IMG/VR virus record: IMGVR_UViG_2529292882_000018
Location: 1-34,246 of that record
Origin: a virus
Lineage: Duplodnaviria; Heunggongvirae; Uroviricota; Caudoviricetes
DNA length: 34,246 bases
Strand: one strand, 5' to 3'
Part shown: piece by piece, positions 1,612 through 34,246 of the stretch
Layout of the letters: every line of letters starts with the position of its first letter
How positions within the stretch are numbered: the stretch's first letter is position 1
Program-made: the position numbers and the translations under genes
Notes under the pieces: generated by a model
What the model was told of the DNA's origin: nothing
The model's input: the letters and a program-made list of their open reading frames with translations, nothing else
The model's database searches: none

Positions 1612-1654
1612 TATAAATACTCCGTGGAAAGTTAGTTTTAATTGTTCATTTCAA

Positions 1655-1692: not shown

Positions 1693-1724
1693 AAAGCCAT
1701 CATATAATTCTCAGTGAAAGGTTA

Positions 1725-2813: not shown

Positions 2814-3036
2814 AAACTAGATGATACTAGATGGTCTTAGAAGGAATTAACTAGTTTGCTCGCTCGCTTCGCTCACTCTCAAACGTCTGCGACGCCACTG
2901 CGTGGCATCGAGAATCACTTCTGAAAGGATTTTCTTGAAAGGGATTTTAAACTAGTTACTAACTGATTCTAGAAAGATAGTAATAATCACTTTGAAGATA
3001 ATAGTAGTTAACTGGTTACTAGATGATTCTAGATCA
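2814..3036. repeat. three copies of a ~20-27 bp CTAG-rich element (core ACTAG-TGAT-CTAGA)
   Basis: Copies at about 2814-2844, 2949-2976 and 3009-3036; eight CTAG tetranucleotides within roughly 250 bp of non-coding DNA. Confidence 0.55.
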
Positions 3037-3293
3037 CTTTAATGATCATGAAAGGTATTGGTATCCCTTCGGGATTGCAACCTTCGGTTGCTAAATTGCT
3101 TCCTAATTATTATTTCTCCAAAAGAAAGATTCTTATATTCTAAAGATACTTCTTCGTTTTGATGATGATTTAATCAAAATCTATGAAGGAGGCGAAGCCG
3201 ACTGAATACCAATTCCTTTCAAATTAGACAAAAATTTCTCGTTATAAATAATAGTGAACTTACTTTGATTCACTTTTTTAGAGGATTTCCACT

Positions 3294-3746
3294 ATGATCA
3301 ATACTAAAACTCCTTTCATTCTTCTGGGTCTGAACCATGATGATAATCTGGCTATGATGCATGTTTTCGCTAATCGTGGTTATAACATCATTCGTCATTC
3401 CGAAGACTCCAATTTCTCAACTGCTTTCTATGCTCTTAAACGTAATGGTCGCCCTACGGTGATCGTAGACTGCTTTACTGATGAAGGTCGTGAACAATAC
3501 AACAACATTCCGGCAATTATTGTTCGTGATGACCTGCCGTTTGATGTTCGTGAATATGACGTTGATTTAGGCTCTTACTATGGGATCGCCGATCTTGACC
3601 AGATTATGGCTGATTACGGTAAACAACCCGCTCAGGAAGCCCCAGAACACGATGAACAAGACGAAGATGACGACGACTACACACCAATCTGTTTCTCTTC
3701 TCACGGTGGCTTCTACGGTTACGATGAAGGCTTAGATATGCTGTAA
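3294..3746 (+). CDS. acidic hypothetical protein
   Basis: 150-aa ORF; strongly acidic with C-terminal EHDEQDEDDDDY run; leader shares a 22-bp element with the gene at 30200. Confidence 0.6.
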   Translation: MINTKTPFILLGLNHDDNLAMMHVFANRGYNIIRHSEDSNFSTAFYALKRNGRPTVIVDCFTDEGREQYNNIPAIIVRDDLPFDVREYDVDLGSYYGIADLDQIMADYGKQPAQEAPEHDEQDEDDDDYTPICFSSHGGFYGYDEGLDML

Positions 3747-3781
3747 TTTAGGTCAACCCTTTGGCGTCTTGTCAAGGGGTA

Positions 3782-3810
3782 TTGACAAAAATTTCTGACT
3801 TTTTTATGAT
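3782..3810 (+). promoter_or_regulatory. sigma70-like promoter with overlapping inverted repeat
   Basis: TTGACA (3782-3787), 17-bp spacer, TATGAT (3805-3810); inverted repeat TTGTCAA-6bp-TTGACAA at 3769-3788; further TTGACA/TTGACC boxes downstream. Confidence 0.45.
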
Positions 3811-3866
3811 TATCGCACTTGACAACTTTGAACCTATTTGACCTAGATTTGTAAAGAGGATGTAAC

Positions 3867-4199
3867 ATGAAAGAATTTACCATCACTAAATCCCTGTATG
3901 ACTGGACTGTTAAAATCTCCGGCAAAACCGTTTCTGTAACCCCTAGCCATGTAGAAAATGATTGGGGCGTATCCCGTGAAACTATCTCCCGTAGTATGCA
4001 TGTTCCGTTTGATCTGATGACCTTAACTGGTATTCATGCAATGCTGGAAGTTCGCGAACAATTCGAAGCTGGTAATCACAATGCGACTCCAGTTAGCAAT
4101 CACCTTCTTACTAATGAAGAACGTGAAATCATCGAAAACTGGCGTTATGAATATGCGATTCCTTATTATGAAGAAGATCAGGTAGAAATCGATTGGTAA
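3867..4199 (+). CDS. hypothetical protein
   Basis: 110-aa ORF with AAGAGGA RBS, downstream of the predicted promoter. Confidence 0.6.
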   Translation: MKEFTITKSLYDWTVKISGKTVSVTPSHVENDWGVSRETISRSMHVPFDLMTLTGIHAMLEVREQFEAGNHNATPVSNHLLTNEEREIIENWRYEYAIPYYEEDQVEIDW

Positions 4200-4288
4200 T
4201 AAATTTCTATTATAAATAAAATTGTTCCGGCGGTGATGCCGGAACTAGGAGGACCAAATCATTAAACCGTTTAAGGGGAATTAATACT

Positions 4289-5116
4289 ATGAATACTGTT
4301 ACCGTTATGAATACTGCTAAAACTGCTTCCGTGTCTCTGGTTGTTGATAACACCAAACCGCTGACCATGTCTTCTCGTCAGATCGCTGAATTTACCGGAA
4401 AAGAACATAAGCATGTTAAACGTGATATTAAAACTATGCTTACTTCTCTTGAATTAGATGAGTCCAAATTTGGACGCATCTTTTTTGACCAATATGGACG
4501 TGAACAAACCGAATATCACCTTGACGAAGAACTTACGCTGACTCTTGTTACTGGTTACGATGTTAAGCGTCGAATGGTTGTTATTCAGGAATGGAAGCGA
4601 CTGAAAGAAGAAAATGAAAAACTGCGTTCTCAGCAAATCAACCCTTACGCAAACATGACTAAGCTCGACTGGATTCGTGAGGCAATGGAATTGGAAGCCG
4701 CAAACGAACAACTGATTCAAGAAAAGAAACAACTGGTTGAATTGCATGTTCGTAAAGCTATCGACACACACAGTCTTAGCCGCTTATTAGGCGAAAAACG
4801 AGGCTCTACGACGGTACAAATGATTCTGAAAGGTTTATGTGCTGCTGGTGTTCTTGAGCGTCGTCTGGATGCTTCTGGTAAGCCTAAAGGCTATGATCTG
4901 CTTCCTCCTGGCTATATGTTCGCTCGTATGTCGGCACACGGTCAGATCGAGTTCACTGCTGATGCTATCCCGCATCTCGTAAAACTCGGATTGCTTGAAG
5001 AAGAAAAGGCCGCAACTTTGAAATTGCCACAGCCGAACAACTCACGAGCAATCATTAATAACACTGCTTTGCTGATTCGTCAGAATGCTGGCTCTCTGGA
5101 AGTCTTCGGACTGTAA
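4289..5116 (+). CDS. Rha-family phage regulatory protein (antirepressor-like)
   Basis: 275-aa ORF; N-terminal segment MSSRQIAEFTGKEHKHVKRDIKTML matches the Rha N-terminal signature as I recall it; central coiled-coil. Confidence 0.65.
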   Translation: MNTVTVMNTAKTASVSLVVDNTKPLTMSSRQIAEFTGKEHKHVKRDIKTMLTSLELDESKFGRIFFDQYGREQTEYHLDEELTLTLVTGYDVKRRMVVIQEWKRLKEENEKLRSQQINPYANMTKLDWIREAMELEAANEQLIQEKKQLVELHVRKAIDTHSLSRLLGEKRGSTTVQMILKGLCAAGVLERRLDASGKPKGYDLLPPGYMFARMSAHGQIEFTADAIPHLVKLGLLEEEKAATLKLPQPNNSRAIINNTALLIRQNAGSLEVFGL

Positions 5117-5124
5117 TAATTTTT

Positions 5125-5149
5125 GCCCCTGAATTTCAGGGGCTTTTTT
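5125..5149 (+). terminator. intrinsic terminator
   Basis: GCCCCTGAA / TTCAGGGGC inverted repeat followed by TTTTTT directly after the Rha-like gene. Confidence 0.8.
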
Positions 5150-5241
5150 GTATCTGTAGATGCGCTCAGAGTTGAGTACATCCCCTCAATTTTGAGGGCA
5201 TCTATAGATCTCACCAAAACTGGCGAGATTGTTTTACATAC

Positions 5242-5265
5242 AAAAAAGCCACTCCGAAGAGTGGC
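5242..5265 (-). terminator. intrinsic terminator for the minus-strand cassette
   Basis: GCCACTC-CGAA-GAGTGGC hairpin preceded on + strand by AAAAAA (U-run on minus transcript). Confidence 0.65.
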
Positions 5266-5280
5266 AAAGAGAATCAAAAC

Positions 5281-5514
5281 TCAAAAACCTGTTGCTTCTA
5301 CGATCTGACCATCACCGATCTGAACATAGAATTTAATGTCTAACTTCTTCATATTCTTATAGAATTGGGCGATTGAGATCCCATGTTCACTAAGAATCTG
5401 TTCTTTCGCTTCCTTACCACGATCCGCTGTATAGTAAGCGTAGGCAATATCAGCCATCTGTTCAGCGTTAAAACGGGCAGGACGACCGCGAGTAGCTTTA
5501 GTAGTCATAGTCAT
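5281..5514 (-). CDS. small putative HTH DNA-binding protein (paralog of 1725-1907)
   Basis: Track ORF 5281-5541 begins at GTG; an ATG at 5514 with GGAGA RBS gives MTMTTKATRGRPARF...; C-terminal FYKNMKKLDIKF motif shared with the 60-aa protein. Confidence 0.5.
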   Translation of the reverse strand: MTMTTKATRGRPARFNAEQMADIAYAYYTADRGKEAKEQILSEHGISIAQFYKNMKKLDIKFYVQIGDGQIVEATGF

Positions 5515-5543
5515 TTTCTCCAAATTAAAGTGAATGTTCACCT

Positions 5544-6146
5544 TTATTTAGAGGACTTACATTTTATCGGAAAAAGTTCTCCATCGTCAATACTCATAAA
5601 GAACTCTGCCTTAATCCCGTACTTCTTCAACCGTGAATAGTATGTACCCCGACTTATATCAACCTTGCGAAGCACTTCAAAGAACCCTTTAGGATCGTTG
5701 TAATAGTGGCTATAACGCACGTTAGCGAGTTCAACGAATAGTTCCCTTGTATCACCATAGCCTTTCTTGAAAGCCTCGTTACGATAGCGTGTAATTGCGT
5801 GATTCAATCTCTTCTGTTTCAACACTTCTCGGATCGGCTTCCACTGCAACCGATAGATAGGACCGTCATCCACTCGATAATAACGCTTGATATCAAAATC
5901 AAACCAATCTCGGACTCTCCGAAACTCTGTATGTGATGTTCTATGCTTCTTAAAGAAGTTGTGAACGTCTGTATAACCATTATCGCGGTAAAACTCTATT
6001 AAAATCTCTTTCGCTTCCTCACGACTAAAGCCAGATGTTGTGTAGTCGGTTTTTAAATGCTTATGCTTAACTGGTAAACGATATTCATGATCGGTACAAG
6101 ACAAGGCTAATTCTAATTCATCTCTTTGTTGCTGATTAATTAGCAT
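5544..6146 (-). CDS. hypothetical basic protein with C-terminal HTH-like motif
   Basis: 200-aa ORF with AAGGGGGG RBS; C-terminal [16 protein letters not shown] resembles the HTH of the two small paralogs; arginine/lysine rich. Confidence 0.5.
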
Positions 6147-6234
6147 ACAACCCCCCTTAAATCTTAATACCCGTATTTATCAAAAAATCAACAATTTAAT
6201 AAATACCTTCATATTTCGTAATGAGGGTAATTAC

Positions 6235-14092: not shown

Positions 14093-17000
14093 ATGCAATC
14101 AATCCAATTTAAACGAACTAATGTTTCTGGCAAAAAGCCAACGCCGGAACAATTACAGGTCGGTGAGGTGGCAATCAACCTTAAAGACCATGTTATTTTT
14201 ACCAAAGACCGAGATCATGAAGTAGTTCAAATCTCTGTTTCTCCTGAAACTCACGCGGCACTAGAATCTAAAGTTGATGCTAACAAACAAGAATTGGATA
14301 GCACAATTGCAGTAAATGACCGCAATATTCACGCTAAAGTAGATGAAATTAAACAAACTACTGATTCTACTATCGCAGCAAATCATGCAGAAATTAACAA
14401 TAAAGTTGATGTAATTAAACGCGAAACCGACGCGACAATCGAAGCTAATAAAAATAAAGCTGCTTCCGATCTTGCTGGTGTTAAAGCTGAATTGTCGGAT
14501 ACCATCAACGCTAATAAAAATGCGGCTGCTGTAGCAACTCAGGAACTGGACACCCGCATCAATAAAAAAGTTGATGATATTAAATCCCGTACAGATGCAA
14601 CCATCGCAAGCAATGACAAAGCAATCAATGACAAAGTTGATTTGATTAAGACAGAAACTGACCGCACTATCGCAGCAAATAAAGTCTATGCGGAAAATCA
14701 GTTAACTGACACCTACAATAACCTTACTGGTGTGATTGCAGCTAATAAGCAAGAGGCAGCGGATAACGTTGCGGCATTAACCCGTGATGTTGAAGCCAAA
14801 AATACAGCAATTCATAGCAAAGTTGACAATAACAAGTCTTACACTGATTCTGAACTGGCACGTTTAGAAAGCCGTATTGATGCAGCCGATGGATCTGCTG
14901 ATGGCAAGTACATCAAAAAACACGTAAACACTTATACTGATGGTTATTTGCTGTCTAAGACCGCAAACTATTTTGATGATCCAAATGCGCGTAATCTTGA
15001 TTACTTTGGTGCATTCCGCATGAATGACCTGGCGGGTCATATTGCAATGATCTTGCATGTTCCGCATCCATCTGGTGTTAATCATGCTCGTGGCTTTGAG
15101 TTCACTTATGGGTCTAATCCACATGCTACTGTAAGAACATACGGCTATGATGAATTAGGTAATTTGTCATATTCTCACCGCATGTATCATGAAGGTGATA
15201 AACCTACTCCGGCTGAAATTGGCGCATATTCGAAAGCAGAAATTGACCGGATGTTCCAGAAGACCATCAACTTTGGTGTAGAAACTGGATGGTTTAAAAT
15301 TGCTACCGCCTTTATTCCGCAAAATGACGGACGTAGCTTGAAAATTAGATTGATTGGTGGAAATGGGTGGAACGTAGGACAAACTGGACAATGTAATATT
15401 ATTGAACTTGTTATAAGGACTAGCAACGGTTCGCCTAAAGGAATTAACTTTGTTGCGTATCATCATGTTTCTGGTTACGAAAATCAATTTTGTGCCATTA
15501 ATACAGGTGATGACACTTATGATATCTATGCATATTACTTCGAATTTACTAATATGGTAATGGCTGAATATCAAGCGTCCAGCGATGTTAATTTAACTGT
15601 ACTTGATCGACCTGAATATGTAGGCGATAAACCTGTAGCTGACCATATCTATGATGCATATACAATACACTCCTTTAACAGTTTCAGTAACCGTGGAACG
15701 TTAAATTTTGCTGGAAACCATCAAGGCCAATATGACATTGAGCATATGAACGAACAACCGACAAATGCTAAAAAGATGTTGCGTCGGTTTAGAAGCTCTG
15801 CCCTCGCGACAATCTGGCATGAAACCGTTGATGATAACGCATATCGTCTTGCCACTGGCGGTACAGATTCAGGTCAACAATTATTGCTGACAACAACCGG
15901 GTTACATGTCAAGAGATTAACATTGGATGGCGGTGCTGCGGGTGGAAATGCTGGTATTGATATTCGTCGAGGACCAAACGAAGCAAGCCATTTTAATTTT
16001 ATGGATTATCGCACTGGTCAAGATGTTCGTAATGGCTGGTTTGGTTTTGGTGATTTGACGACCAAAGATTTTATTTGGTGTAACGATAACGGTCAAAACT
16101 CGATAAACTTGATTGAAAACGGTGAATTACATATTACTGGTGGTAAAGGCCAGAAAATTGTAATGAATAGCGAAGTCGCATTGTCTGAAAATGCTCGTTT
16201 GGCTGTTAAAGGTGGTAATTATGGCTTAATTTTTAGAAATGATGGTACTAGTTTCCATATACTGACTACCGATTTAAAAGATTCTTTTGGAAATTGGAAT
16301 AATCGTAGACCATTCAGCTATGATTTCGCCGAAGGTGGATTAGATCTAGGTGGCACAACGACCGAACGCTGTTTACATCTGGGAATTGATGGTAGTACCC
16401 GCATCGAGGAGAACTTAGTTTTCCGATCTGGGTCGCGTCAATCAATGGACTATATTGAAATGATCCATTGGGGTAACAGTAATATCGCTCGTGACAACGT
16501 TTTGAGTATGAAAGACTCAAAAGGATTCCTTGCTGAATTTGAACGAGTGGGTGGGACTAACGGCGTTAAAACCAGATTCTTTGGTGAAACATTCACTGAT
16601 GGTACATTATACCTAAATCAGATGAATAATAGCTCTGAACGATTCTCTATCAACAATTGGGGAAATTCAGAAGTTGGACGCGCGGCAGTAATGGAAATCG
16701 GCGATTCCAAAGGTTATCACTTCTATACGGAACGTAGAACAGATAACAGTTTGATGTTTGATGTTGCTGGCGCTTTTACTGTGCATGGACCTAGCGGGAT
16801 CACTATCAAAAACTCTGATGGTGCTCGTCACATCTGGTTTAGAGATAACAGCGATACAGAAAAGGCTGTTATCTGGGCTACAGATGAGGGTATTTTACAT
16901 ATTCGCAATAACCACGGTGGACAATTTAGTCATCACTTCCAGGGTGCAATGATTAAAGCGGGAGAGCGTGTTCCATATAATAGTGAATACGCTCTTATCC

Positions 17001-17602
17001 GTGGTGATATTTCCGGTGGTGCATGGGTAGACTGGCGAGCGCGTCCGGCTGGATTGTTGGTAGACTGTCAGGACTCACGAAATCAAGCATATAACATTTG
17101 GAAAGCTACTCATTGGGGCGAACAGCACCTTGCGGCGATGGGTGTTCATGCTGGCGGTGGTAATCCTCATGTTGTATTGCATGTGGGTGGGAATGATTAT
17201 GCATTTGCATTTAACGGTGATTTTACTGCTGGTGCTGCTGTATATTGTAACGACGTTTATATTCGTTCTGACCGTCGTCTGAAAATTAATGTTGAAGACT
17301 ACGAAGAGAATGCGGTGGATAAGGTAAATAAACTCAAAGTTAAAACCTATGATAAAGTTAAATCTCTTTCTGACCGCGAAGTTATCGGCCATGAGATTGG
17401 TATTATCGCACAGGATTTGCAAGAAGTATTACCGGAAGCTGTTAGCACTTCTAGTGTCGGATCTCAGGATAACCCAGAAGAAATTTTAACAATTTCAAAC
17501 TCCGCAGTGAACGCGCTTTTAATTAAAGCGGTCCAAGAAATGAGCGAAGAAAATAAAATCCTTCGTGAACGTCTTGCTGCAATTGAGGCTAAATTAGGGT
17601 AA
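14093..17602 (+). CDS. side tail fibre / tailspike-like protein with C-terminal intramolecular chaperone (S74-type) domain
   Basis: 1169 aa; N-terminal tandem ~21-aa KVD..IK..TD.TIAAN repeats; C-terminal SDRRLKINVED...IGIIAQDLQEV... matches the auto-cleaving chaperone domain known from T5 L-shaped fibre and K1F endosialidase. Confidence 0.8.
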   Translation: MQSIQFKRTNVSGKKPTPEQLQVGEVAINLKDHVIFTKDRDHEVVQISVSPETHAALESKVDANKQELDSTIAVNDRNIHAKVDEIKQTTDSTIAANHAEINNKVDVIKRETDATIEANKNKAASDLAGVKAELSDTINANKNAAAVATQELDTRINKKVDDIKSRTDATIASNDKAINDKVDLIKTETDRTIAANKVYAENQLTDTYNNLTGVIAANKQEAADNVAALTRDVEAKNTAIHSKVDNNKSYTDSELARLESRIDAADGSADGKYIKKHVNTYTDGYLLSKTANYFDDPNARNLDYFGAFRMNDLAGHIAMILHVPHPSGVNHARGFEFTYGSNPHATVRTYGYDELGNLSYSHRMYHEGDKPTPAEIGAYSKAEIDRMFQKTINFGVETGWFKIATAFIPQNDGRSLKIRLIGGNGWNVGQTGQCNIIELVIRTSNGSPKGINFVAYHHVSGYENQFCAINTGDDTYDIYAYYFEFTNMVMAEYQASSDVNLTVLDRPEYVGDKPVADHIYDAYTIHSFNSFSNRGTLNFAGNHQGQYDIEHMNEQPTNAKKMLRRFRSSALATIWHETVDDNAYRLATGGTDSGQQLLLTTTGLHVKRLTLDGGAAGGNAGIDIRRGPNEASHFNFMDYRTGQDVRNGWFGFGDLTTKDFIWCNDNGQNSINLIENGELHITGGKGQKIVMNSEVALSENARLAVKGGNYGLIFRNDGTSFHILTTDLKDSFGNWNNRRPFSYDFAEGGLDLGGTTTERCLHLGIDGSTRIEENLVFRSGSRQSMDYIEMIHWGNSNIARDNVLSMKDSKGFLAEFERVGGTNGVKTRFFGETFTDGTLYLNQMNNSSERFSINNWGNSEVGRAAVMEIGDSKGYHFYTERRTDNSLMFDVAGAFTVHGPSGITIKNSDGARHIWFRDNSDTEKAVIWATDEGILHIRNNHGGQFSHHFQGAMIKAGERVPYNSEYALIRGDISGGAWVDWRARPAGLLVDCQDSRNQAYNIWKATHWGEQHLAAMGVHAGGGNPHVVLHVGGNDYAFAFNGDFTAGAAVYCNDVYIRSDRRLKINVEDYEENAVDKVNKLKVKTYDKVKSLSDREVIGHEIGIIAQDLQEVLPEAVSTSSVGSQDNPEEILTISNSAVNALLIKAVQEMSEENKILRERLAAIEAKLG

Positions 17603-17641
17603 TTGGAAAGCGGGGCGAAAATCCCCGCTAAGGATTCTTAT

Positions 17642-17938
17642 ATGGGATATTGGGTAAGTAGTGAAATTAATACTAAAATCGATGCTTTAAAATGGCATGT
17701 ATTTGATATTCCTAACGGCTATGGTACTGCTCGTGCTGGTGTCGCTGTAATGCGTCATAATGCTGGTGGTGGGTGGTCTGATGCACATATTAACGTAGAT
17801 GGTTTGACCGTTGCTCGTCGTCGTGGTGGGACCAATTGGGGATCTACTATAAATTCGTTTGTTCCTGCTGGCTGCACCGTCTCCTTTGGTTTAGGGGGTG
17901 AAGGTGGTGTTGAATATTTTAAATTCATGGAGTTTTAA
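17642..17938 (+). CDS. small Gly-rich protein, paralog 1 of 3
   Basis: Track ORF starts at TTG 17603 inside a hairpin; ATG 17642 with AAGGA RBS gives MGYWV...FDIPNGYG. Confidence 0.55.
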   Translation: MGYWVSSEINTKIDALKWHVFDIPNGYGTARAGVAVMRHNAGGGWSDAHINVDGLTVARRRGGTNWGSTINSFVPAGCTVSFGLGGEGGVEYFKFMEF

Positions 17939-17940
17939 TT

Positions 17941-18246
17941 ATGGCTGGATGGATAAATCAAAGAATGTCAAACGCTATTAGTATTTGGGCTAATGGTGGA
18001 TATTTTGATATCCCCAACGGTTGGGTCACTGATTCATGCGGAATTGTCTTTGCTCATATGGAAGCCATTAACGGTGCTGGTGATCTTGATTCTGAATTGG
18101 CTGTAAATGGATTGATTGAATCAGGTCATCATGCTGGTGATGCTGGGAGTTGGGGCGCTAGTTCTTTAGTTGGCGCTGGTGCTACCGTTAGCTTTACATT
18201 GGGTAAAGGTAGTTTGCATTATTTCAAATTCAGGAGAATGCACTAA
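17941..18246 (+). CDS. small Gly-rich protein, paralog 2 of 3
   Basis: 101 aa, MAGWI...FDIPNGWV; DNA-level similarity to neighbours around the GATATTCCTAACGG block. Confidence 0.55.
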   Translation: MAGWINQRMSNAISIWANGGYFDIPNGWVTDSCGIVFAHMEAINGAGDLDSELAVNGLIESGHHAGDAGSWGASSLVGAGATVSFTLGKGSLHYFKFRRMH

Positions 18247-18548
18247 TGGCATTTTGGGTAGATGGCGCTTTGGGGAATAGGGCGGGTAAAGCAAATCAAG
18301 GATGGTTTGATATTCCTAACGGGTGGACAGCCGACGCTTTCGGGACTATTTCATTTTCCGCTCATTCTTCCGGTGGTGGCGGTGGTGACTCTGAATTGCT
18401 TATTCATGGTTTGTGTGTTTCTGGAAGTCATAAGGGTCATGATTGGGGACAGATTCATTCTTGTATTGCACCGCAAGGGGCGGTAATTACCGTTAGCACG
18501 AATAGAGGGATTGCTCATCTTCGTTATAGACGCTTGAGCAACCGCTAA
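18246..18548 (+). CDS. small Gly-rich protein, paralog 3 of 3
   Basis: 100 aa, MAFWV...FDIPNGWT; start overlaps previous stop (TAATG); AGGAG RBS. Confidence 0.55.
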   Translation: MAFWVDGALGNRAGKANQGWFDIPNGWTADAFGTISFSAHSSGGGGGDSELLIHGLCVSGSHKGHDWGQIHSCIAPQGAVITVSTNRGIAHLRYRRLSNR

Positions 18549-18602
18549 ATAAATAGAATTACGGGTATGTGCCCTATTGTTTAAAATAGAAGGAAAAGAA
18601 TA

Positions 18603-19493: not shown

Positions 19494-19844
19494 ATGATGA
19501 GATCGGGGCTTAGTAAAGATGAAATGGATAATATGCCAATCACTCTGTTTTGGAAATTATACATTTTCGACACCTACTTAGAACCACAAAGCCCCGCGTT
19601 TCATGATATGCAGAATGCGATGTTGCAATATTCCATGTATATGACTTCGCAAGGAATGACACGCGAAACTGCACGTAAACTCAAGCCTAACCAATTCCAA
19701 TTAATTAGAGAAGAAAAACTCTTTAAAACTAAAGAAGAACTGGAAGAACTTGCACGCAAGAAAGAAGAAGAACGTAAAGCTGCAACATTGAGCATGTTCG
19801 ATCCATCTTTGCTTGAGAAACTCAGAAGCGCACAAACGGGGTAA
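19494..19844 (+). CDS. tail assembly chaperone T-like segment, probably made as a G-T fusion
   Basis: 116-aa ORF lacking a convincing RBS; its frame is open from 19449 and is the -1 frame relative to the upstream ORF. Confidence 0.45.
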   Translation: MMRSGLSKDEMDNMPITLFWKLYIFDTYLEPQSPAFHDMQNAMLQYSMYMTSQGMTRETARKLKPNQFQLIREEKLFKTKEELEELARKKEEERKAATLSMFDPSLLEKLRSAQTG

Positions 19845-19847
19845 TTT

Positions 19848-22277
19848 ATGACAAGACATATAGTAACAATAGAAGGGGATAATAAAGGTCTAAGGAGAAG
19901 TACCAATGAAGCCGCCGACCTTCTCGATCGTTTGTCTGAAAAGGCAAGTAATATTGATTTTGGTGGTGGCTTATCTGGTCTGACTGGATCTCTTCGTGGG
20001 ATCGCTGGCTCTGCTGGTTTGGCTGCTGGTGGTATCGGCTTAGTTGCGACCGCAGTGGTTGCAGCCGCTAAAGCTGGCGCGGAATACGTTAAACAGTATT
20101 CAGAAGTATCTAAGGCGACCGGACTCTCGATTGAATCCCTTCAAAGACTGGAAAAGGAATTTTCTGGTACTGGCTTAACAGTTGAAAAATTTGGCGATAT
20201 CAACAAAGACACCTTAGATAAAATGGGTGATGCGTGGGCTAATGGTGGTGGTATTGCCGATGACTTAGAATCGGTTGGTCTTAAGTTAGAAAACTATGCT
20301 CACTTCATGACAGATCCGCAAGGTGGTATGAAAGCGGCGATCCAAGTGTTCTATGACATGAAGAAAGCCGGAAAATCAATGGCTGAAATCAAGTTCATGA
20401 TGGAATCTTTAGCCAGTGATTCAAGCCATATGACCAGCCAGCTTGAGAAATATAATAGTGCTCAAGAGGCGATGATCGCTATTCAGAATCAATCTGTTAA
20501 CGTCACCGAAGAAAACGCTAAAAAATATGATAAATTTTCTCAAAATATCAATAAGCTGGAAAATAACCTGAAAGGGGTCGGCATGACCATTACTGGTCCG
20601 CTGGTTGATAGTTTAAACTGGTTATTTGACTGGTTTAATATTGATTGGGAAAAGAGTTCTCTATTCAGGGCATTAGATCGACTGAATAAAGAAGGCAAGA
20701 CCGCAACTGGCGGTATTCTTAACGCCAACCATAAAGACGCTCAAAAAATTATTGACAAGTACAATAAAGAAAAGCGTTGGAATAATCTGGCAGATTGGGA
20801 AAAGGCCGCGATCCGTGGTGCTGGTGTCGATCCTCGTACTGCTGGCTTTGATGTAGAAGCATATAAGAAACGTTTTGGTAATTCTTATAAGAAAAATGGC
20901 TCTCTGATTGTAGTCGATAACGGGGAACATCTAACCCGCAAGGCAGATCCTAATACTGATTTAACTCTACCAAATAAACCAGTAAGACCAGAATCATTGG
21001 GTAAGTCTGGTAATGAGAAGAAAGAAGAGGAAAAAGCCAAGAAGAAAGCGGAAGAGAAAGCTAAAAAGGCTAAGGAAGCCGCAGAAAAAGCACAGAAAGA
21101 ACGTGAGGATGCAATCAAGCGTCTGAATGCACTTGATGTTAAATTGCAAGGGCAGGTCGCCGCGTCTATTGCTTCTCAAAACAAGCAATTAGAATCCAGT
21201 TTGAAAGATTTGGACACTGCTTTAGATCTGGGCTTAATCTCTCAGCAAGACGCAGCCGCGAAACGCCAATCCTTAATCGATCAGAATACTGAAAACGTAT
21301 ACAAAATGGTTTTAGGTGCTGATCCGGTTGATGCTTTGAATGCCTTAACACAATTGCAACAAATCAGGGACAACGAGTTAGAAAGCCATAAACGGTTACT
21401 TGATGGTAAGGCTATCTCCTACGAAGAATATATGCGTCGTGTGAATGATACCGAACAAAGTTATTCGCAGATTGAAGATTCTTTGCATGGAATGGATGGT
21501 TTTAAAACCAATCAGTTGACCAATAGCTTAGACTATCAGGATTCAAATAACCCGTTTGCTAAATTTAATGCAATCGATAAAGAGAAATCGGAAGCGGAAC
21601 AAGATTATAAGACCGATAAACTCAAGATTGATGGGATCACCGATCCGGCTAAACGGATGGAAGCATTAGAAAAACTCAATGAAAACCATCAAAAACGAAT
21701 GGCTGCAATTGAAAAGAAATATGCTGATGCTCGCCAGTCAATAGCCGATGATATGTACGGCGGTTTTGCTGCTGCAATGACTCTCTTCGGGCAGGAAAAC
21801 ACTAAAGCTATGCAGATGGCTTTCAATGCTCATAAAGCATTCTCCATTGGACAAGCGACGGTGAACATGTGGACGGCTGCTACCGATGCATGGAACGATC
21901 CGACCAACGTAACCACAGGTCAAAAAATCGCTGCTGCTGCATTGGCTGTTTCTCAGAACATGGGGAACATCGCAAACATCAAGTCTACTAACGTTAGCGG
22001 TATGGCTCATGATGGTATTGATAACATCCCTCGTGAGGGTACATGGTTGCTTGATAAGGGTGAACGAGTAGTTGATCAGCGTACTAACGGTGATTTGAAA
22101 GACTTCTTATCTGCTCAAAAATCAGGTGGTGGTAACTCTCAGCCGATTGAAGTTAATGCGCCTTTGAACATTAACGGCAACGTTAATAGCTCAGACAAGA
22201 TGGTCATGGATGCTATCAAACGTCACGCTAAGTTAGTTGCTCAGGCGGTAGAAGACGCACAGCGCCGTAAGATGTAA
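19848..22277 (+). CDS. tail tape measure protein
   Basis: 809 aa, Gly/Ala-rich N-terminal region, long helical K/E/Q-rich middle, position after G/T pair. Confidence 0.85.
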   Translation: MTRHIVTIEGDNKGLRRSTNEAADLLDRLSEKASNIDFGGGLSGLTGSLRGIAGSAGLAAGGIGLVATAVVAAAKAGAEYVKQYSEVSKATGLSIESLQRLEKEFSGTGLTVEKFGDINKDTLDKMGDAWANGGGIADDLESVGLKLENYAHFMTDPQGGMKAAIQVFYDMKKAGKSMAEIKFMMESLASDSSHMTSQLEKYNSAQEAMIAIQNQSVNVTEENAKKYDKFSQNINKLENNLKGVGMTITGPLVDSLNWLFDWFNIDWEKSSLFRALDRLNKEGKTATGGILNANHKDAQKIIDKYNKEKRWNNLADWEKAAIRGAGVDPRTAGFDVEAYKKRFGNSYKKNGSLIVVDNGEHLTRKADPNTDLTLPNKPVRPESLGKSGNEKKEEEKAKKKAEEKAKKAKEAAEKAQKEREDAIKRLNALDVKLQGQVAASIASQNKQLESSLKDLDTALDLGLISQQDAAAKRQSLIDQNTENVYKMVLGADPVDALNALTQLQQIRDNELESHKRLLDGKAISYEEYMRRVNDTEQSYSQIEDSLHGMDGFKTNQLTNSLDYQDSNNPFAKFNAIDKEKSEAEQDYKTDKLKIDGITDPAKRMEALEKLNENHQKRMAAIEKKYADARQSIADDMYGGFAAAMTLFGQENTKAMQMAFNAHKAFSIGQATVNMWTAATDAWNDPTNVTTGQKIAAAALAVSQNMGNIANIKSTNVSGMAHDGIDNIPREGTWLLDKGERVVDQRTNGDLKDFLSAQKSGGGNSQPIEVNAPLNINGNVNSSDKMVMDAIKRHAKLVAQAVEDAQRRKM

Positions 22278-30199: not shown

Positions 30200-31198
30200 A
30201 TGAATACTACTTTAGCAAAGGATATCGAATTTACCACAAAAAGCAAACGTGCGACCCCTCCGGTCGAATATGAAACCAGAATCATTAAAGTTTGTCAAGT
30301 GCATGGGTGGTTATACAGTGGTTTTGTGCTTCCTGTAAAGAAACCATTCCAGAACACCAAAGTTTGCATAGAAGTTAACGGAAAGGTTAAAACGCCATGT
30401 ATTAGTCATGTTCTAACTGGTCAGTTTACTGGCAAAGATAGAGTATCACCGCCTAAGAAGAAGTTTAGATTTACCGAAGAAGAACACTTAGAAAACGCTC
30501 GCAAGTTCTACAAGCCGATAGGGTGGGATGTGTTAGGTCTGGCTGAACCTTATCAGGGTGTTGACACTAAACTAATTCTTCGTTGTAAGTGCCACGGAAA
30601 GATTCACAAGAAAGGTGATTTACACAATAACCGCAGACAAGGCGGGTTAACATGCCCTTTGGTTAGGGGTGTACTTAAATCAATTCAGAATGGTAGAAAA
30701 CAGGTTATCAGAAACAAGTTTGCACAGCGCCCTATGCACTTTTATCTAATTCGTGTTGGCGAGAAGTTTTTCAAATATGGAATTACCACTCGCAAAGATC
30801 CGATGCAACGGGTAAGAGAACACCAGAAGCACACCAGCGAGAAAATCACCTTTGAATGCTCACATTTGTTTAACATTGGATGGAAAGCTGGTGATTTAGA
30901 AATGGGGATTAAAAAGAATATTCAGGGCAAGAAAATCCCACGTAAGGTAATGAATAGCGGATTCACAGAAACGCTACCGATTAGCAAGTTGAAAGATGTT
31001 AAATCATTCATCAATGAATACATCCACACCAACCCATCTAAGCCAATGTATTTTGATGATACCAACGCAATCAATCTGAACAACTACATTAGTGATGAAG
31101 ACATAGAACGAGATTTATCGCAGTGGATGAATGCACCGTTAGCTGATTTAACACCGGAAGACTTAGAACTCGATTTAAGCCCTTTAGAGGCTCTTTAA
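30200..31198 (+). CDS. Cys/His-rich protein with GIY-YIG-like (T5orf172-like) segment
   Basis: 332 aa; FYLIRVGEKFFKYGITTR...RVREHQ resembles the GIY-YIG core; N-terminal Cys/His clusters suggest zinc binding; leader shares 22-bp element with gene at 3294. Confidence 0.5.
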   Translation: MNTTLAKDIEFTTKSKRATPPVEYETRIIKVCQVHGWLYSGFVLPVKKPFQNTKVCIEVNGKVKTPCISHVLTGQFTGKDRVSPPKKKFRFTEEEHLENARKFYKPIGWDVLGLAEPYQGVDTKLILRCKCHGKIHKKGDLHNNRRQGGLTCPLVRGVLKSIQNGRKQVIRNKFAQRPMHFYLIRVGEKFFKYGITTRKDPMQRVREHQKHTSEKITFECSHLFNIGWKAGDLEMGIKKNIQGKKIPRKVMNSGFTETLPISKLKDVKSFINEYIHTNPSKPMYFDDTNAINLNNYISDEDIERDLSQWMNAPLADLTPEDLELDLSPLEAL

Positions 31199-31213
31199 TA
31201 CAATTAAATTAAA

Positions 31214-31235
31214 AAGGGGTACAGATGTACCCCTT
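31214..31235 (-). terminator. perfect 10-bp inverted repeat AAGGGGTACA-GA-TGTACCCCTT, probable terminator of recombinase gene
   Basis: Lies between converging genes; on minus transcript the hairpin is followed by TTTTAATTTAATT. Confidence 0.5.
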
Positions 31236-31271
31236 AAAGTGTTTAGCTCGTTATACGTCGATTTAGGCCGC

Positions 31272-32951
31272 TTAAATTCCAAATTCCTGTAATGGACCTG
31301 GTATTTCCTCTTCTGGTTTCCAGTTCTTATCTGTCAGCATGTCTAAACATGGATGCAAAACAAGCCCGTTACTTTCCAGAATCTGTCTATCATTGATAGT
31401 TTTCAAATCAATGAATATCCGGCCTTTCCTCGTTCCTCTTGAATTTTCTATTACAACTCTCTGGGTCTTTCCATCGATGTATTCCAGTACAAACAAGTTT
31501 TTGTTTCTGTCAATCCTGCTACACCCGATCCGCTTTAGAGCTTGCTTAATCTTAAACCGGACCTTTAGTCGTTCCTCGTTATAAACATCTTCTAAATCAA
31601 ATTCTGCGAGCTTCTCCCAGCCTTGAGAGTCCACAGAATACATTTCCTCTTCTGCCATCTTGATCTGATTGTAGAGTGTTTCACGCTCGCTATTGAGGGT
31701 AGTAATCTGATCGGCTAGCTCCTTCGTTGCTCCTGTCATAGCAGAAAGGGCAATCAGGTTATCAATCTTGCGTGATATCTCATCAACCTGTACTTTCAAA
31801 GCCGGAACCGGATTAGCCTTATCCTCAGCAATCCAGATTTTATCAGCCAGCAATTGCAATACAGCTTTCTCTAATTGATCCCCTCGAAAACTCCAGTTTG
31901 GATGCTCGCAATCAAGTCTACGTGAACGGGTCGCATCACATGTATAACGATACTGGTCAGAACGTTTGTTTGTTCCCTTCACTTTAACCATAGCGCAACC
32001 GCAATGATCACATTTCAATAGGCCAATGCCACTAAGCAGGGGGATCGGTTTAGCTTCTTCCTTGTCTCCAAAGTTCCATGCTCTAGCACCAATATTTTTC
32101 TTAAGGTGATAGAACGTAGCATCATCAATAACACGAGGGTAATAATCCTTTAACTCATAGTTAACGCCATCTACAGAGACTTCCTTGATACCAATCAAAG
32201 CGCGGGTATGGAACAACCTTTCAACCATTGCCCGTGACCATTTTGAATGCTTCTTATTACTAACCGCTGGTGGCGGTGTATATGTCTCGTTAAGGTGATC
32301 CAGTATTTCGGCGGTTGAACGTCCATTCTTCCGTAATTCCACAATCTCCTGAACAACAGGGAAGTACACCGGATGAGGCAGCACATAACCGGAAGTGGTA
32401 TCAGTCCACCACATATTCTTTCCAACTTCCTCGATAGCCACTGCCGGATTTTGTGGATTTTCTTGATGAGCTTTAATCTTAATCAATGCGCTTGAGTTAG
32501 TACGATTGCGCTTAGTCTGGCTTTCCTCATTACCACGGATGAATAAAAGGATGGAGAACATCAGGTCCATCGGGTTAGCGGTAACAGTATCCAGCGAGTA
32601 GATCTTGTTATCCATGCCAGTAACAATGGTTATTCCCCTACGGATGATTGAAAGGAATAACTCCTGCGCACTGACAATATCGGCACGGGATAAACGGTCC
32701 AAGTTTTCGATGAATAGCCAGCTACCAACAGGAACGGATCTACCTATTGCATCAAGGAAACGAGATAGCGCCCCTGTTTTGGAGTTAGCACCTTTAAACG
32801 CAGATACACCCAGATCCTGATAATCATTTACCAGTTCAAGGTCATACTTTGCCGCAATCTCTCTCGCCATCCTGATTTGTCGTTCATAACTCGAACCATC
32901 ATTCTGACGCATAGACGAGAAGCGAATATACGAATATAGTTTAGTTTTCAT
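31272..32951 (-). CDS. large serine recombinase
   Basis: 559 aa; N-terminal YIRFSSMRQ serine-recombinase catalytic motif and ENLDRLSR block; CDHCGC...C...C zinc-ribbon; C-terminal coiled-coil. Confidence 0.85.
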   Translation of the reverse strand: MKTKLYSYIRFSSMRQNDGSSYERQIRMAREIAAKYDLELVNDYQDLGVSAFKGANSKTGALSRFLDAIGRSVPVGSWLFIENLDRLSRADIVSAQELFLSIIRRGITIVTGMDNKIYSLDTVTANPMDLMFSILLFIRGNEESQTKRNRTNSSALIKIKAHQENPQNPAVAIEEVGKNMWWTDTTSGYVLPHPVYFPVVQEIVELRKNGRSTAEILDHLNETYTPPPAVSNKKHSKWSRAMVERLFHTRALIGIKEVSVDGVNYELKDYYPRVIDDATFYHLKKNIGARAWNFGDKEEAKPIPLLSGIGLLKCDHCGCAMVKVKGTNKRSDQYRYTCDATRSRRLDCEHPNWSFRGDQLEKAVLQLLADKIWIAEDKANPVPALKVQVDEISRKIDNLIALSAMTGATKELADQITTLNSERETLYNQIKMAEEEMYSVDSQGWEKLAEFDLEDVYNEERLKVRFKIKQALKRIGCSRIDRNKNLFVLEYIDGKTQRVVIENSRGTRKGRIFIDLKTINDRQILESNGLVLHPCLDMLTDKNWKPEEEIPGPLQEFGI

Positions 32952-32960
32952 ACCATTTCC

Positions 32961-33000
32961 AAAACAAAAAGCCCCTACCGCGTATTATAACGATAGGGGC
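32961..33000 (-). terminator. intrinsic terminator for minus-strand gene 33017-33262
   Basis: GCCCCTA...TAGGGGC hairpin preceded on + strand by AAAACAAAAA. Confidence 0.65.
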
Positions 33001-33016
33001 ATTGGTTAGTAAGTCA

Positions 33017-33262
33017 TTAATATTTCTTTCCAGTTAGTTTTGCATCACGTTTATTAATATCCTCGATATGACTCCATACACACGCAGTAATAAAGTCGTC
33101 ATCGTCACCAACTCCGGCAACCTGTGCTAATTCAGTACACAGTTGATTTAAAGAAGGTGCAACGGCAGCACGCTTGACACTATCACCCTGTACATATTGT
33201 TCGGCATTTGCAGCACCAACCAAACCCAGAGCAAGAACAACACCCGCGATAATCTTTTTCAT
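33017..33262 (-). CDS. small secreted/periplasmic protein
   Basis: 81 aa; N-terminal MKKIIAGVVLALGLVGAANA signal-peptide-like segment, two Cys, DDDD run. Confidence 0.55.
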   Translation of the reverse strand: MKKIIAGVVLALGLVGAANAEQYVQGDSVKRAAVAPSLNQLCTELAQVAGVGDDDDFITACVWSHIEDINKRDAKLTGKKY

Positions 33263-33307: not shown

Positions 33308-33433
33308 TTAAAAATTGATGCTAATTACCAGACCAAACACAACCGCACCAATCAAATCAATCCAGTTAATACACAATCCGCTATATTCTTTCTTGAATGT
33401 CTTAGATGAAATGCCATCATGAAATTGTTTCAT
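33308..33433 (-). CDS. 41-aa peptide with C-terminal hydrophobic segment (not in ORF track)
   Basis: Hand translation MKQFHDGISSKTFKKEYSGLCINWIDLIGAVVFGLVISINF; GGGGTG upstream; start is 4 nt from upstream peptide stop. Confidence 0.35.
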   Translation of the reverse strand: MKQFHDGISSKTFKKEYSGLCINWIDLIGAVVFGLVISINF

Positions 33434-33574: not shown

Positions 33575-33961
33575 TTAAGCGCGAACGATGGTCAGAGTAT
33601 CCAGCAAACCTTTTTCGTATAATTCGAAACACGTTTTATATTGCTCAATCTGGAAACCATAGCGGGTGATCTTATTCAGTAGGACAATCGCGCTATTCTC
33701 ATCTAGGTATTGTCCTTGCTTACCAATTACATATGACTCGCGGGATAGTTTCAGCTTACGGAAACCTTTAACACCTAATTCCTTAGCCACCGCTTTAATC
33801 TCTTTAATCTCACCCTCAGCCGCAACATATTCAGCGTCGATAATCTCAGGTGATGATCTCAGTGCTACCAGAACTAAGGCCATTGCTTCTTCTTCGGTAC
33901 GAGCAACACCAGCTTTCTCGAAAGTCATCTCACCAAATTTACGAATCATGATATTGAACAT
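33575..33961 (-). CDS. hypothetical protein
   Basis: 128-aa ORF. Confidence 0.55.
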   Translation of the reverse strand: MFNIMIRKFGEMTFEKAGVARTEEEAMALVLVALRSSPEIIDAEYVAAEGEIKEIKAVAKELGVKGFRKLKLSRESYVIGKQGQYLDENSAIVLLNKITRYGFQIEQYKTCFELYEKGLLDTLTIVRA

Positions 33962-33973
33962 TGTTTTGCTGCC

Positions 33974-34246
33974 TTACTTCTTGCTGATAAACTCTTTAGC
34001 GATAAAGTTGATTACTTCTTTCAGCTTCTTGTCTGTATCGATGCACGCCGGTAATTCTTCTTTAATCTCCTGCGGCAGATACACATTGCCTTTAAAGTGG
34101 AGGAAACCATCATTACCAATCATGTAGGAGAACATCCATTCACAATCGTTATCCGCTTCCCAGAACGCTACGGTCTCATCGCCAATCAAGGTAATGTCCA
34201 TGTTGCGACGTGCTGCGTAGTTGATGATTGCTTTGCCGATGTTCAT
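33974..34246 (-). CDS. hypothetical protein, may extend beyond window edge
   Basis: 90-aa ORF whose start codon is the last three bases of the window. Confidence 0.45.
   Translation of the reverse strand: MNIGKAIINYAARRNMDITLIGDETVAFWEADNDCEWMFSYMIGNDGFLHFKGNVYLPQEIKEELPACIDTDKKLKEVINFIAKEFISKK

Follow-up and report, generated by a model that had tools for sequence, protein, structure and literature searches.

A probable serine integrase of a lambda-like enterobacterial phage and the terminator-like palindrome downstream of its gene

The window analyzed here, a stretch of 34,246 nucleotides of phage DNA, holds a gene for a large serine recombinase (LSR) and, shortly past its stop codon, a perfect palindrome. 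Two questions arise at this locus: whether the recombinase integrates the phage or instead carries out inversion or resolution, and whether the palindrome is the site on which it acts or a terminator. According to our analysis, the LSR is very probably the integrase of a temperate lambda-like siphophage of about 35.5 kb that resides in E. coli, Shigella and Salmonella, and the palindrome, which is not its attachment site, is very probably a terminator.

The recombinase and its phage

The initial annotation had described a 559-aa serine recombinase, and this is borne out by the open reading frame at 31272..32951 on the minus strand, whose product matches three Pfam domains: Resolvase (PF00239, 1.2e-14, residues 6-153), Recombinase (PF07508, 3.7e-9) and Zn_ribbon_recom (PF13408, 1e-10). 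Conserved residues, profile matches and an AF2 model searched with Foldseek also identify the protein as a serine integrase. With approximate boundaries, it consists of a catalytic domain (residues 1-125) in which Ser12 is the nucleophile, a long helix (126-165), a recombinase domain (166-290), a zinc ribbon (291-360) with Cys314, Cys317, Cys338 and Cys348, a coiled coil (361-450) and a poorly modelled C-terminal region (451-559). Residues Y8, R10, S12, D85, R86 and R89 as well as the four cysteines are invariant among 17 homologues, down to 28% identity.

A phmmer search of the PDB with the single LSR sequence gave no match, and a profile was required. The sequence profile matches the A118/LI, phiC31 and TP901-1 integrases, and residues 260-483 align with the C-terminal domain of the A118 integrase, coiled coil included (E = 6e-13). 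The AF2 model places long helices at 357-436, and its best Foldseek matches are full-length serine integrase-att complexes, with 13-16% identity to the solved structures. Both the catalytic and the C-terminal domain are thus those of a large serine recombinase, as are the 2-bp junctions and the symmetry of attP described below, and the protein probably catalyzes recombination. Relatives found in a scan of genome contigs all share at most 41% identity, belong to other genera and were of no help for mapping the att sites. In the part of the LSR supplement of Durrant et al. that was searched, neither the N-terminus of this protein nor the att strings occur. PADLOC returned no defence-system match for the LSR or for the small neighbouring ORFs.

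The initial description of the virion as lambda-like broadly holds: genes for a gpA-type terminase, a lambda-family portal, a lambda-like tail tube and a gpJ-like tail tip are present in the window. Close relatives of the phage are lacking among sequenced phages; its best TerL match reaches 45% at the amino acid level, and a megablast search of deposited phage genomes with the region gave no match. None of the phage genes encodes a second recombinase, be it a tyrosine integrase, a DDE transposase or another serine recombinase.

Integration sites and a candidate promoter at attP

Searches for lysogens and for phage-host junctions, both suggested by the initial annotation, were run and were successful. 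Integrated copies are common: the LSR gene occurs in 57 of 5426 complete E. coli genomes (about 1%), and the element is also present in Shigella and Salmonella, which excludes a strictly lytic phage. In many genomes an identical LSR protein is encoded by prophages adjoining csgG-ycdZ-ycdY. Two halves of ycdX always flank the element, both annotated as pseudogene halves in RefSeq. One free-phage form was found, a 34.9-kb metagenome scaffold (ENA, L009) that carries attP; the existence of integrated and free forms shows only that the cycle is running. A 35,485-nt Logan contig was considered as a free genome and rejected, as it ends in attR.

Junctions were mapped using L001, L002, L040, L009 and the empty K-12 site. 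In the prophages, attL reads ...TTTGGGA-TT-CCCTAATATC... and attR reads ...ACGTTCGGG-TT-TCCGGGATGG..., the empty attB of K-12 is ...TTTGGGA-TT-TCCGGGATGG... and attP of the single free-phage scaffold is ...ACGTTAGGG-TT-CCCTAATATC.... The bases flanking TT switch parentage at once on both sides; the exchange is therefore confined to 2 bp, as for a serine recombinase. Both element ends derive from attP and attB by exchange at this 2-bp core, without target duplication. The attP site spans about 60 bp with imperfect symmetry (GTGTTATTGGGGGTTGACTACGTT[A/C]GGG-TT-CCCTAATATCATGTACCCACAATAACAC; as a 60-bp sequence, GTGTTATTGGGGGTTGACTACGTTCGGGTTCCCTAATATCATGTACCCACAATAACAC), and its P' arm matches the reverse complement of the P arm at 21 of 30 positions, including CCCTAA and ACCCnCAATAACAC. 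The attB site is shorter and lies within codon 134 of the 245 codons of ycdX (CATATTTGGGA-TT-TCCGGGATGG); insertion there presumably inactivates the gene. The ycdX variants of Salmonella Enteritidis (PMC7046640) were rejected as related events, being 4-bp insertions unrelated to the TT site. Literature cited in that paper names swarming as a phenotype of ycdX disruption.

These sites are located outside the window. The TT crossover of attL falls 43-44 nt beyond the window edge at 34246, that is, at 34289-34290, and the P' arm there reads CCCTAATATCATGTACCCACAATAACAC. At the other end, attR is found about 1248 nt before position 1, past a 184-aa TerS-like gene and a 101-aa gene, both outside the window; the stop codon of the 184-aa gene directly precedes position 1. 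Four nucleotides to the left of TT, the free-form attP differs (A vs C) from the P arm of all five E. coli ycdX-type attR junctions examined, presumably a strain polymorphism. Exact-pattern scans for attP gave no match in IMG/VR viral contigs or in JGI metagenome contigs, so that attP rests on the one ENA scaffold and on reconstruction from the junctions.

Sister lineages provide information on site choice. The Salmonella LSR, which is 71% identical, uses the same TT position in ycdX, and in E. coli another lineage integrates at the 3' end of hicB. Over the catalytic domain and helix E, the hicB-type and ycdX-type proteins share 99-100% identity, against only 86% in the recombinase domain and 80% in the zinc ribbon. 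From these comparisons, the switch to hicB appears to map mainly to the two DNA-binding domains. We assign the integrase function to the LSR because it is the sole recombinase of the phage and because the change of site tracks the divergence of its DNA-binding domains. By analogy with the family, integrase dimers would bind the approximately 60-bp attP and the shorter attB in ycdX, make 2-nt staggered cuts at TT, rotate the subunits and religate. Integration would then split ycdX and leave the integrase operon at one end of the prophage.

Four ORFs on the minus strand are found between attP and the LSR gene, encoding 90 aa (33974-34246), 128 aa (33575-33961), 41 aa (33308-33433) and 81 aa (33017-33262), the last with a signal-peptide-like N-terminus. 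Their order is identical in all prophage copies. They fall into PHROG families phrog_6147 and phrog_14908, both of no assigned function, and have no Pfam or PADLOC matches. Since Pfam and PHROGs assign nothing to these ORFs or to most early genes, there is no candidate for a recombination directionality factor or for a repressor. About 1.3 kb and 3-4 ORFs separate attP from the start of the integrase gene, a looser arrangement than that of textbook serine-integrase phages.

Each of the three reconstructed attP variants contains a predicted, near-consensus sigma-70 promoter that spans the crossover, with the -35 hexamer on the P arm and the -10 hexamer on the P' arm: TTGACT-17-TATCAT in the E. 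coli ycdX type, TTTACA-18-TATAAT in the hicB type and TTGACA-17-TATTAT in Salmonella. The background rate of matches at 10 or more of the 12 positions is about 1.3-2e-4 per nucleotide per strand. The hexamers lie on opposite sides of the crossover, the promoter points into the recombinase operon, and the match is lost upon integration, none of the three attL forms containing one. The TT crossover falls inside the 17-18-nt spacer, and the predicted promoter would drive the operon made up of the small ORFs and, at its end, the integrase gene. We therefore put forward, as a tentative proposal with a little under an even chance, that attP is a split sigma-70 promoter and that the integrase operon would be switched on only in the circular, unintegrated genome. 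Integration would shut off the operon that produced it, a self-limiting circuit. As part of the same proposal, the prophage could be a reversible switch of ycdX function, since ycdX is split at codon 134.

Two terminator-like hairpins are found between this candidate promoter and the integrase gene on the minus strand. One lies among the small ORFs, at 33561-33541. The other, called by terminator scans at 32961..33000, is a strong hairpin followed by a T-run (GCCCCTATCG...CGGTAGGGGC TTTTTGTTTT) that ends about 10 nt before the ATG of the LSR gene. The Salmonella relative, too, has a hairpin of this type immediately before the start of its LSR gene. The hairpin is likely an attenuator, or a terminator that keeps read-through into the integrase gene low.

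The palindrome downstream of the gene

The palindrome had been described accurately: AAGGGGTACA-GA-TGTACCCCTT at 31214-31235 is 22 bp long, with perfect 10-bp arms around a 2-nt centre, and it starts at the 37th nucleotide past the LSR stop codon, 36 nt lying between. The genes on either side converge on it: a 332-aa ORF on the plus strand stops at 31198, and the minus-strand LSR ORF stops at 31272. Taken by itself, the palindrome is only mildly unusual: a shuffled window has on average 0.4 perfect inverted repeats whose arms reach 10 bp or more and whose spacer is no longer than 8 nt, and such a repeat turned up at least once in 50 of 200 shuffles. What makes it significant is where it lies and that relatives conserve it.

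Terminator scan, RNA folding and comparison of relatives all point to an intrinsic terminator of the LSR operon at 31200..31235 on the minus strand, facing the late/lysis operon of the plus strand. The hairpin is effectively a 9-bp stem (9-10 bp, 5 G-C pairs) with a 4-nt loop, followed on the minus strand by the T-tract TTTTTAATTTAATTG. The tail in the LSR sense is TTTTTAATTT, and that of the plus strand is weaker (TTAAAGTGTTT). Folds were computed for both strands, and the RNA in the LSR sense folds with -17.7 kcal/mol; the scan calls the hairpin a minus-strand terminator.

Among 18 sequence types, including the Salmonella relative, the 9-bp stem and the T-tract are invariant and the loop takes eight forms, the centres seen among close relatives being TC, GA and TT, and the loops ATCC, ATTC, GATT, TTC and TA. 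In several of these forms the tenth base pair is lost, which leaves a 9-bp stem plus loop as the conserved unit. The only change seen in an arm turns CCCCTT into CCCTTT; it occurs in relatives whose downstream gene is co-directional and is compatible with pairing, as G-U, only in the LSR-sense RNA. No compensatory double substitutions were found in the stem among the 18 types; the RNA structure is therefore supported by the variability of the loop and by this one wobble-compatible change, not by covariation. In nearly all relatives the palindrome begins at the 37th nucleotide after the LSR stop codon, and in some it begins about 300 nt after it. A stem-loop with a U-tract thus stands at the end of a transcription unit, and the conservation of structure over loop sequence is supportive. 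This supports the terminator reading of the initial annotation, and transcription in the LSR sense probably ends at 31214-31235. The palindrome would have no part in recombination; it would form the stem-loop at which the integrase transcript ends by rho-independent termination, and would also keep this transcript apart from the converging late/lysis operon.

The same annotation had likened the palindrome to a serine-integrase attachment core, and a recombination site with a GA crossover dinucleotide, either attP or a site of inversion or resolution, is indeed what perfect 10-bp arms around a non-palindromic dinucleotide beside a recombinase gene might suggest. The centre is moreover seen both ways in relatives, GA and TC, which superficially suggests inversion. 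We nevertheless consider this reading very improbable. As attP it is refuted, the prophage junctions being about 3.05 kb away and using TT, and all integrated copies (at ycdX, L001-L008 and L010) carry the palindrome whole, where integration would have split an attP. No conserved central dinucleotide is shared among relatives: the supposed GA core is a variable loop, and what persists is the stem. No partner copy exists in the window within 3 mismatches, which speaks against a site of inversion or resolution; the integrase role stands on the integrated copies and their 2-bp crossover junctions. The palindrome also shows no resemblance, in register, to the attP and attB half-sites, and a conserved T-tract follows it on the LSR sense strand. 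Small hairpin-loop inversions in themselves yield such GA/TC flips. We also tried GGGGTACA/TGTACCCC as a protein-binding motif common to attP, with 4 copies in the window against about 1 expected, and rejected it because the palindrome accounts for two of the four and attP has the motif in a different register.

Less improbable, although still unlikely, is a DNA-level role of the hairpin besides termination, as a boundary at which homologous recombination swaps modules or as an operator for a phage protein. The 332-aa ORF (30200..31198, plus strand) is an endonuclease-like cargo gene (phrog_681 endonuclease; a homologue is named GIY-YIG nuclease in RefSeq) and closes the late/lysis block. The slot it occupies differs among relatives, which have there a 496-aa UvsW-like helicase, a 390-aa gene or others, and gene content switches about 13 nt beyond the hairpin. 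The 9-bp stem is identical from E. coli to Salmonella relatives despite LSRs that are 71% identical and flanks that cannot be aligned. Conservation of a short GC-rich terminator stem is expected anyway, because single changes are deleterious; no copy of the motif stands on the far side of the cargo slot, nor is it more frequent elsewhere than chance predicts, and no candidate binding protein is known. The remaining alternative concerns the enzyme: the LSR could be an accessory or cargo recombinase, with another, unrecognised enzyme integrating the phage into ycdX. Its best phage homologues include the uncharacterised YbcK-like proteins of lambdoid phages (31% identity), which have tyrosine integrases of their own, much of the early region is without recognisable function and attP is not directly beside the LSR gene. 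This is highly unlikely, given that the phage genes supply no other recombinase, that an exact 2-bp exchange at a dyad-symmetric attP is the signature of a serine integrase, that the LSR gene belongs to the operon starting at attP, and that changes of att site go with divergence in its DNA-binding domains. We retain the LSR as the probable integrase and the palindrome as its probable terminator.

Relation to known systems

To take the perfect palindrome next to this recombinase gene for its attachment site was plausible but wrong, and finding the real one, outside the window, required prophage junctions. Base-precise attP, attB and TT core sequences are now given for a widespread and previously uncharacterised enterobacterial serine integrase, along with two sister specificities, one for ycdX in Salmonella and one for the 3' end of hicB in E. 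coli. These att sequences are ready substrates for testing new orthogonal integrases or for studying retargeting. Apart from these points and the candidate promoter, the feature is ordinary temperate-phage biology.

Elements at ycdX have been listed in high-throughput maps of Cronobacter sakazakii: the supplement of PMC7192596 gives a 36-kb TIGER island, Csa8.36.ycdX, flagged as disrupting the PHP domain, and PMC3680222 names a "Prophage (Csak) ycdX". Target gene and size match the present prophage, the likeness resting on these list entries. The literature searched holds no description of the att core of a ycdX element, of its integrase or of the E. coli/Salmonella lineage.

Among deposited phages, the nearest homologues of the LSR are the YbcK-type recombinases of lambdoid coliphages (4A7, Perceval, DLP12-like) and those of the Burkholderia phages JC1, Bcep22 and Bcep176, which share 28-33% identity with it across 66-94% of its length and are thus distant. 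In the lambdoid phages, which integrate by tyrosine integrases, YbcK is encoded in the middle of the genome, whereas the present LSR is the only recombinase of its phage and has mapped junctions.

With the known serine integrases (Listeria A118/LI, PDB 4KIS; phiC31 Int; TP901-1 Int; Bxb1 Int; SPbeta SprA), the LSR shares the catalytic domain, recombinase domain, zinc ribbon and coiled coil. It also resembles them in its non-palindromic 2-bp core, in an attP that is longer and more symmetric than attB, and in insertion inside a host gene. It differs from them in its enterobacterial host, in the location of its attP, upstream of the gene and at the start of an operon of several genes, and in a C-terminal region of about 100 aa that is not well modelled. 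The predicted promoter recalls the "joint promoter" of Tn4451-type elements, in which a promoter of the recombinase operon is formed only when the element ends join, as proposed here at attP. Unlike in those elements, the carrier is a phage and the spacer of the predicted promoter holds the crossover itself; if confirmed, the split promoter would extend the Tn4451-type logic to a phage serine integrase.

A serine recombinase encoded by a prophage in ycdX

The ORF at 31272..32951 (-) encodes a protein of 559 aa with the Pfam domains Resolvase, Recombinase, and Zn_ribbon_recom, as expected from the serine recombinase reported in the initial annotation. When 17 homologues were aligned, the most distant at 28% identity, the resolvase catalytic residues (Y8, R10, S12, D85, R86, and R89) proved invariant, as did C314, C317, C338, and C348 of the zinc ribbon. 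A single-sequence search of the PDB gave no match; the alignment profile matched the C-terminal domain of the Listeria A118/LI integrase (4KIS, E = 6e-13) through the coiled coil, as well as the integrase of phiC31 and the catalytic domain of TP901-1. In a structure search with an AlphaFold2 model (mean pLDDT 75.5, residues 516-559 poorly modelled), full-length serine integrase-att complexes ranked first (9dxf, 9y66, 9dxh), followed by phiC31 and LI. Together, the invariant residues and the profile and model matches identify the protein as a complete large serine recombinase (LSR).

The exact LSR protein is present in many bacterial assemblies, always with the same neighbours, and its gene is carried by 57 of 5426 complete E. 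coli genomes. On the LSR side, csgDEFG-ycdZ-ycdY and a 116-aa ycdX fragment are followed by phage ORFs of 90, 128, and 81 aa, the LSR, and the lysis and tail genes. At the opposite end, we observed ghrA, a 141-aa ycdX fragment, a 101-aa ORF, a 184-aa TerS-like ORF, and the first gene of the window. For the 90-aa neighbour, the collection records 1787 blocks; the 10 places listed all have the csgDEFG-ycdZ-ycdY/ycdX context. In NZ_CP038857.1, the element is flanked by two ycdX pseudogene halves (RefSeq annotation). The stop codon of the 184-aa gene immediately precedes window position 1, and the window closes with the start codon of the 90-aa gene. It lacks 43 nt at one end of the prophage and about 1248 nt at the opposite end; the whole prophage is ~35,537 bp in JH768573.1. 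The phage is temperate. Integration by a serine integrase, initially suggested together with a search for junctions and lysogens in bacterial genomes, is thus supported by integrated copies flanked by ycdX halves, whose junctions show a 2-bp crossover.

Written in LSR sense orientation, attB (K-12) reads CATCTATTTCATATTTGGGA-TT-TCCGGGATGGCTTATTATATGC, attL ...CATATTTGGGA-TT-CCCTAATATCATGTACCCACAATAAC..., attR ...GGGGGTTGACTACGTTCGGG-TT-TCCGGGATGGCTT..., and attP ...GGGGGTTGACTACGTTAGGG-TT-CCCTAATATCATGTACCCAC.... The attP sequence was read in a metagenome scaffold from ENA (L009, 34.9 kb), where the site has phage DNA to its left and right. Immediately left of TT, attB and attL share an A, and attP and attR share a G; immediately right of it, attB and attR carry T, and attP and attL carry C. 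Since the flanking bases switch parentage at TT, the exchange is confined to this dinucleotide, which is a serine-recombinase signature (2-nt staggered cuts). The attP arms match as an inverted repeat at 21 of 30 positions, and the symmetry of attB is much lower (9/25). Accepted host variants of the B arm are TTTCGGA-TT and GGATACTTTGGG-TT, the second from an Escherichia-like genome with a ycdX flank unlike that of E. coli. The crossover lies at 34289-34290 in extended window coordinates, that is, 43-44 nt past the window end and 1.34 kb upstream of the LSR start. It interrupts ycdX at codon 134 of 245, from which we infer that the gene is probably inactivated.

No tyrosine integrase, transposase, or second serine recombinase was found among all genes of the element. 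A Salmonella relative whose LSR is 71% identical is inserted at the same TT in ycdX, and an E. coli sister lineage is inserted at the 3' end of hicB, with the shared core TTTAGGTTT. Compared with the window LSR, the hicB-type LSR (locus L019) is 99-100% identical in the catalytic domain and helix E, and 86% and 80% identical in the recombinase domain and zinc ribbon, the two DNA-binding modules. Such divergence accompanying a change of site is the pattern expected if the LSR chooses the site. As judged from sequence, the LSR is the serine integrase of the prophage.

Copies of the hicB lineage, whose LSR is a mosaic of a near-identical catalytic part and diverged DNA-binding domains, were seen at L019, L025, L033, and L036 (attL side) and at L041 and L043 (attR side). 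Some of them lack the 90-aa gene and carry the 128-aa gene directly after the conserved leader. The prophage of the complete genome NZ_CP038857.1 (L057) is degraded, with an IS1A copy in place of the head and packaging genes (locus 19819-20516), and retains the LSR, the terminator, and both ycdX halves.

The palindrome downstream of the LSR gene

The palindrome AAGGGGTACA-GA-TGTACCCCTT was found as initially described, at 31214-31235, its first base being the 37th nt past the LSR stop codon. It is placed between convergent genes, the 332-aa + strand ORF (ending at 31198) and the LSR. Perfect 10-bp inverted repeats are no rarity by themselves (0.4 per shuffled window with spacers up to 8 nt). 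Several comparable hairpins stand at ends of genes in the window, and between 29000 and 34246 there are 13 terminator-like sites versus 3.6 expected.

The initial annotation had viewed the palindrome as an attachment core with a central GA, had considered inversion or resolution, and had also read it as a terminator hairpin. We rejected the attachment core: the junctions are at TT, 3.05 kb from the palindrome, which is unbroken in prophages and has a variable centre. It stays unbroken 3' of the LSR in essentially all relatives. Across 18 sequence types, Salmonella included, neither the 9-bp stem AAGGGGTAC/GTACCCCTT nor the TTTTTAATTTAATTG after it changes, while the four central bases vary (ATCT, AGAT, ATCC, ATTC, ATTT, GATT, TTC, or TA) and the tenth base pair is often missing. 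The proposed GA core is therefore a variable loop, even found flipped. Nor does the window hold a second copy with up to three mismatches, so that inversion or resolution has no partner there. The terminator reading agrees with the constant stem and T-tract around a variable loop, with the call of a - strand terminator in the terminator scan, and with the hairpin predicted by RNA folding. In relatives with a co-directional downstream helicase, one arm is CCCTTT, which pairs (as G-U) in the LSR-sense RNA and fails to pair in the antisense RNA. Across relatives, no compensatory double substitutions were found in the stem. We conclude that the palindrome is the predicted intrinsic terminator of the integrase operon, where the converging late/lysis operon is met. 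The stem sequence shows striking constancy, also between relatives whose flanks no longer align, and gene content switches about 13 nt beyond the hairpin; the palindrome might, less probably, have an additional role as a module boundary.

Between this terminator and the endolysin lies a slot that is a hot spot for cargo genes, occupied in the window by the 332-aa GIY-YIG/endonuclease-like gene (30200-31198, +) and also seen in loci L005, L007, L008, L010 (11957-13447), and L138 (5763-9540). Other E. coli copies carry a 496-aa UvsW-like helicase, with weak PADLOC helicase matches (PbeA, type IV REase), and the Salmonella slot contains a 390-aa gene, a helicase, and a UvsY-like gene.

A predicted promoter split by integration

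The best promoter-like match in 2.2 kb of the free-phage form is TTGACT-17-TATCAT (L009 8647-8675; ~34262-34290 and onward beyond the window end). Its -35 lies on the P arm and its -10 on the P' arm, with TT inside the spacer. The match stops 32 nt upstream of the 90-aa ORF and is oriented towards the 90aa-128aa-81aa-LSR operon. Reconstruction of the hicB-type attP from its two junctions gave TTTACA-18-TATAAT, and the Salmonella attP has TTGACA-17-TATTAT; none of three attL forms retains a match. Matches of at least 10/12 arise by chance at ~1.3-2e-4 per nt per strand, so the expectation for a crossover-spanning, rightly oriented match is roughly 0.5%. Within the attP dyad, the hexamers occupy positions that are not symmetric, which argues that they would be more than integrase half-site bases. 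A near-consensus sigma-70 promoter is thus predicted to straddle the attP crossover and would be destroyed on integration.

This promoter might drive the LSR through the operon; however, two terminator-like hairpins stand between them, one ending about 10 nt before the LSR ATG. The latter hairpin, at 32961-33000 (-), is strong (11 pairs, T-run, TATAAT in the loop) and conserved in the Salmonella relative. Terminator-like hairpins thus bracket the LSR gene at both ends, which suggests that its expression would be attenuated. In the leader of the first operon gene (L009 8676-8706, just past the window end), an inverted repeat, TGTACCC-N14-GGGTACA, overlaps the Shine-Dalgarno GAGGGGG and may provide translational control; the Salmonella leader has a similar arrangement, ATACACCC...GGGGAGTAT.

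Other regions of the phage and comparison with known systems

At ~14956-18565, in the ORF 14093..17602 (1169 aa) and the small ORFs that follow, this lambda-like prophage is 88-95% identical in nucleotides to the region encoding the distal subunit of the long tail fibre (gp37) in lytic T4-like phages (vB_EcoM_G37-3, 93.6% across 3.4 kb; RB32/RB33, 95% across 1 kb). The 1169-aa ORF has, in addition, a Gp34_trimer domain and a Peptidase_S74 chaperone domain. The stretch looks like the product of a recent tail-fibre exchange between temperate and T-even phages. A homing-endonuclease-like NUMOD3-domain ORF of 255-257 aa (about 19.4-20.2 kb in locus coordinates, window ~22.9-23.5 kb) lies between tail genes in L001, L006, L009, and L010 and is absent from other copies, including L002-L005. 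In the early region (1-6200 and 1.25 kb before position 1), no repressor, replication, or excisionase gene is recognisable; the only recognisable gene encodes a pRha-domain protein (4289-5116), and 1611-3294 is almost devoid of ORFs of at least 90 aa. The 184-aa TerS-like gene (phrog_57) adjoins attP, about 6 kb from the large terminase, with opposite-strand genes between.

Searches of deposited phages gave no close sequenced relative of the whole phage. Among them, the LSR is closest, at 28-33% identity, to proteins of the YbcK type from lambdoid coliphages and to serine recombinases from the Burkholderia phages JC1, Bcep22, and Bcep176. In the literature searched, we found neither this E. 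coli/Salmonella lineage nor its att core or integrase described; for Cronobacter sakazakii, a 36-kb element targeting ycdX is already catalogued (TIGER supplement PMC7192596; PMC3680222). The integrase is an uncharacterised instance of a well-known type, and the palindrome is ordinary. The value lies mostly in the att sites, which are precisely mapped, in the switch of specificity at the level of domains, and in the predicted split-promoter circuit. For the latter, the TnpX joint promoter of Tn4451, going by a title cited in PMC13023037, is of similar design, as are the state-dependent int promoters of ICEs.
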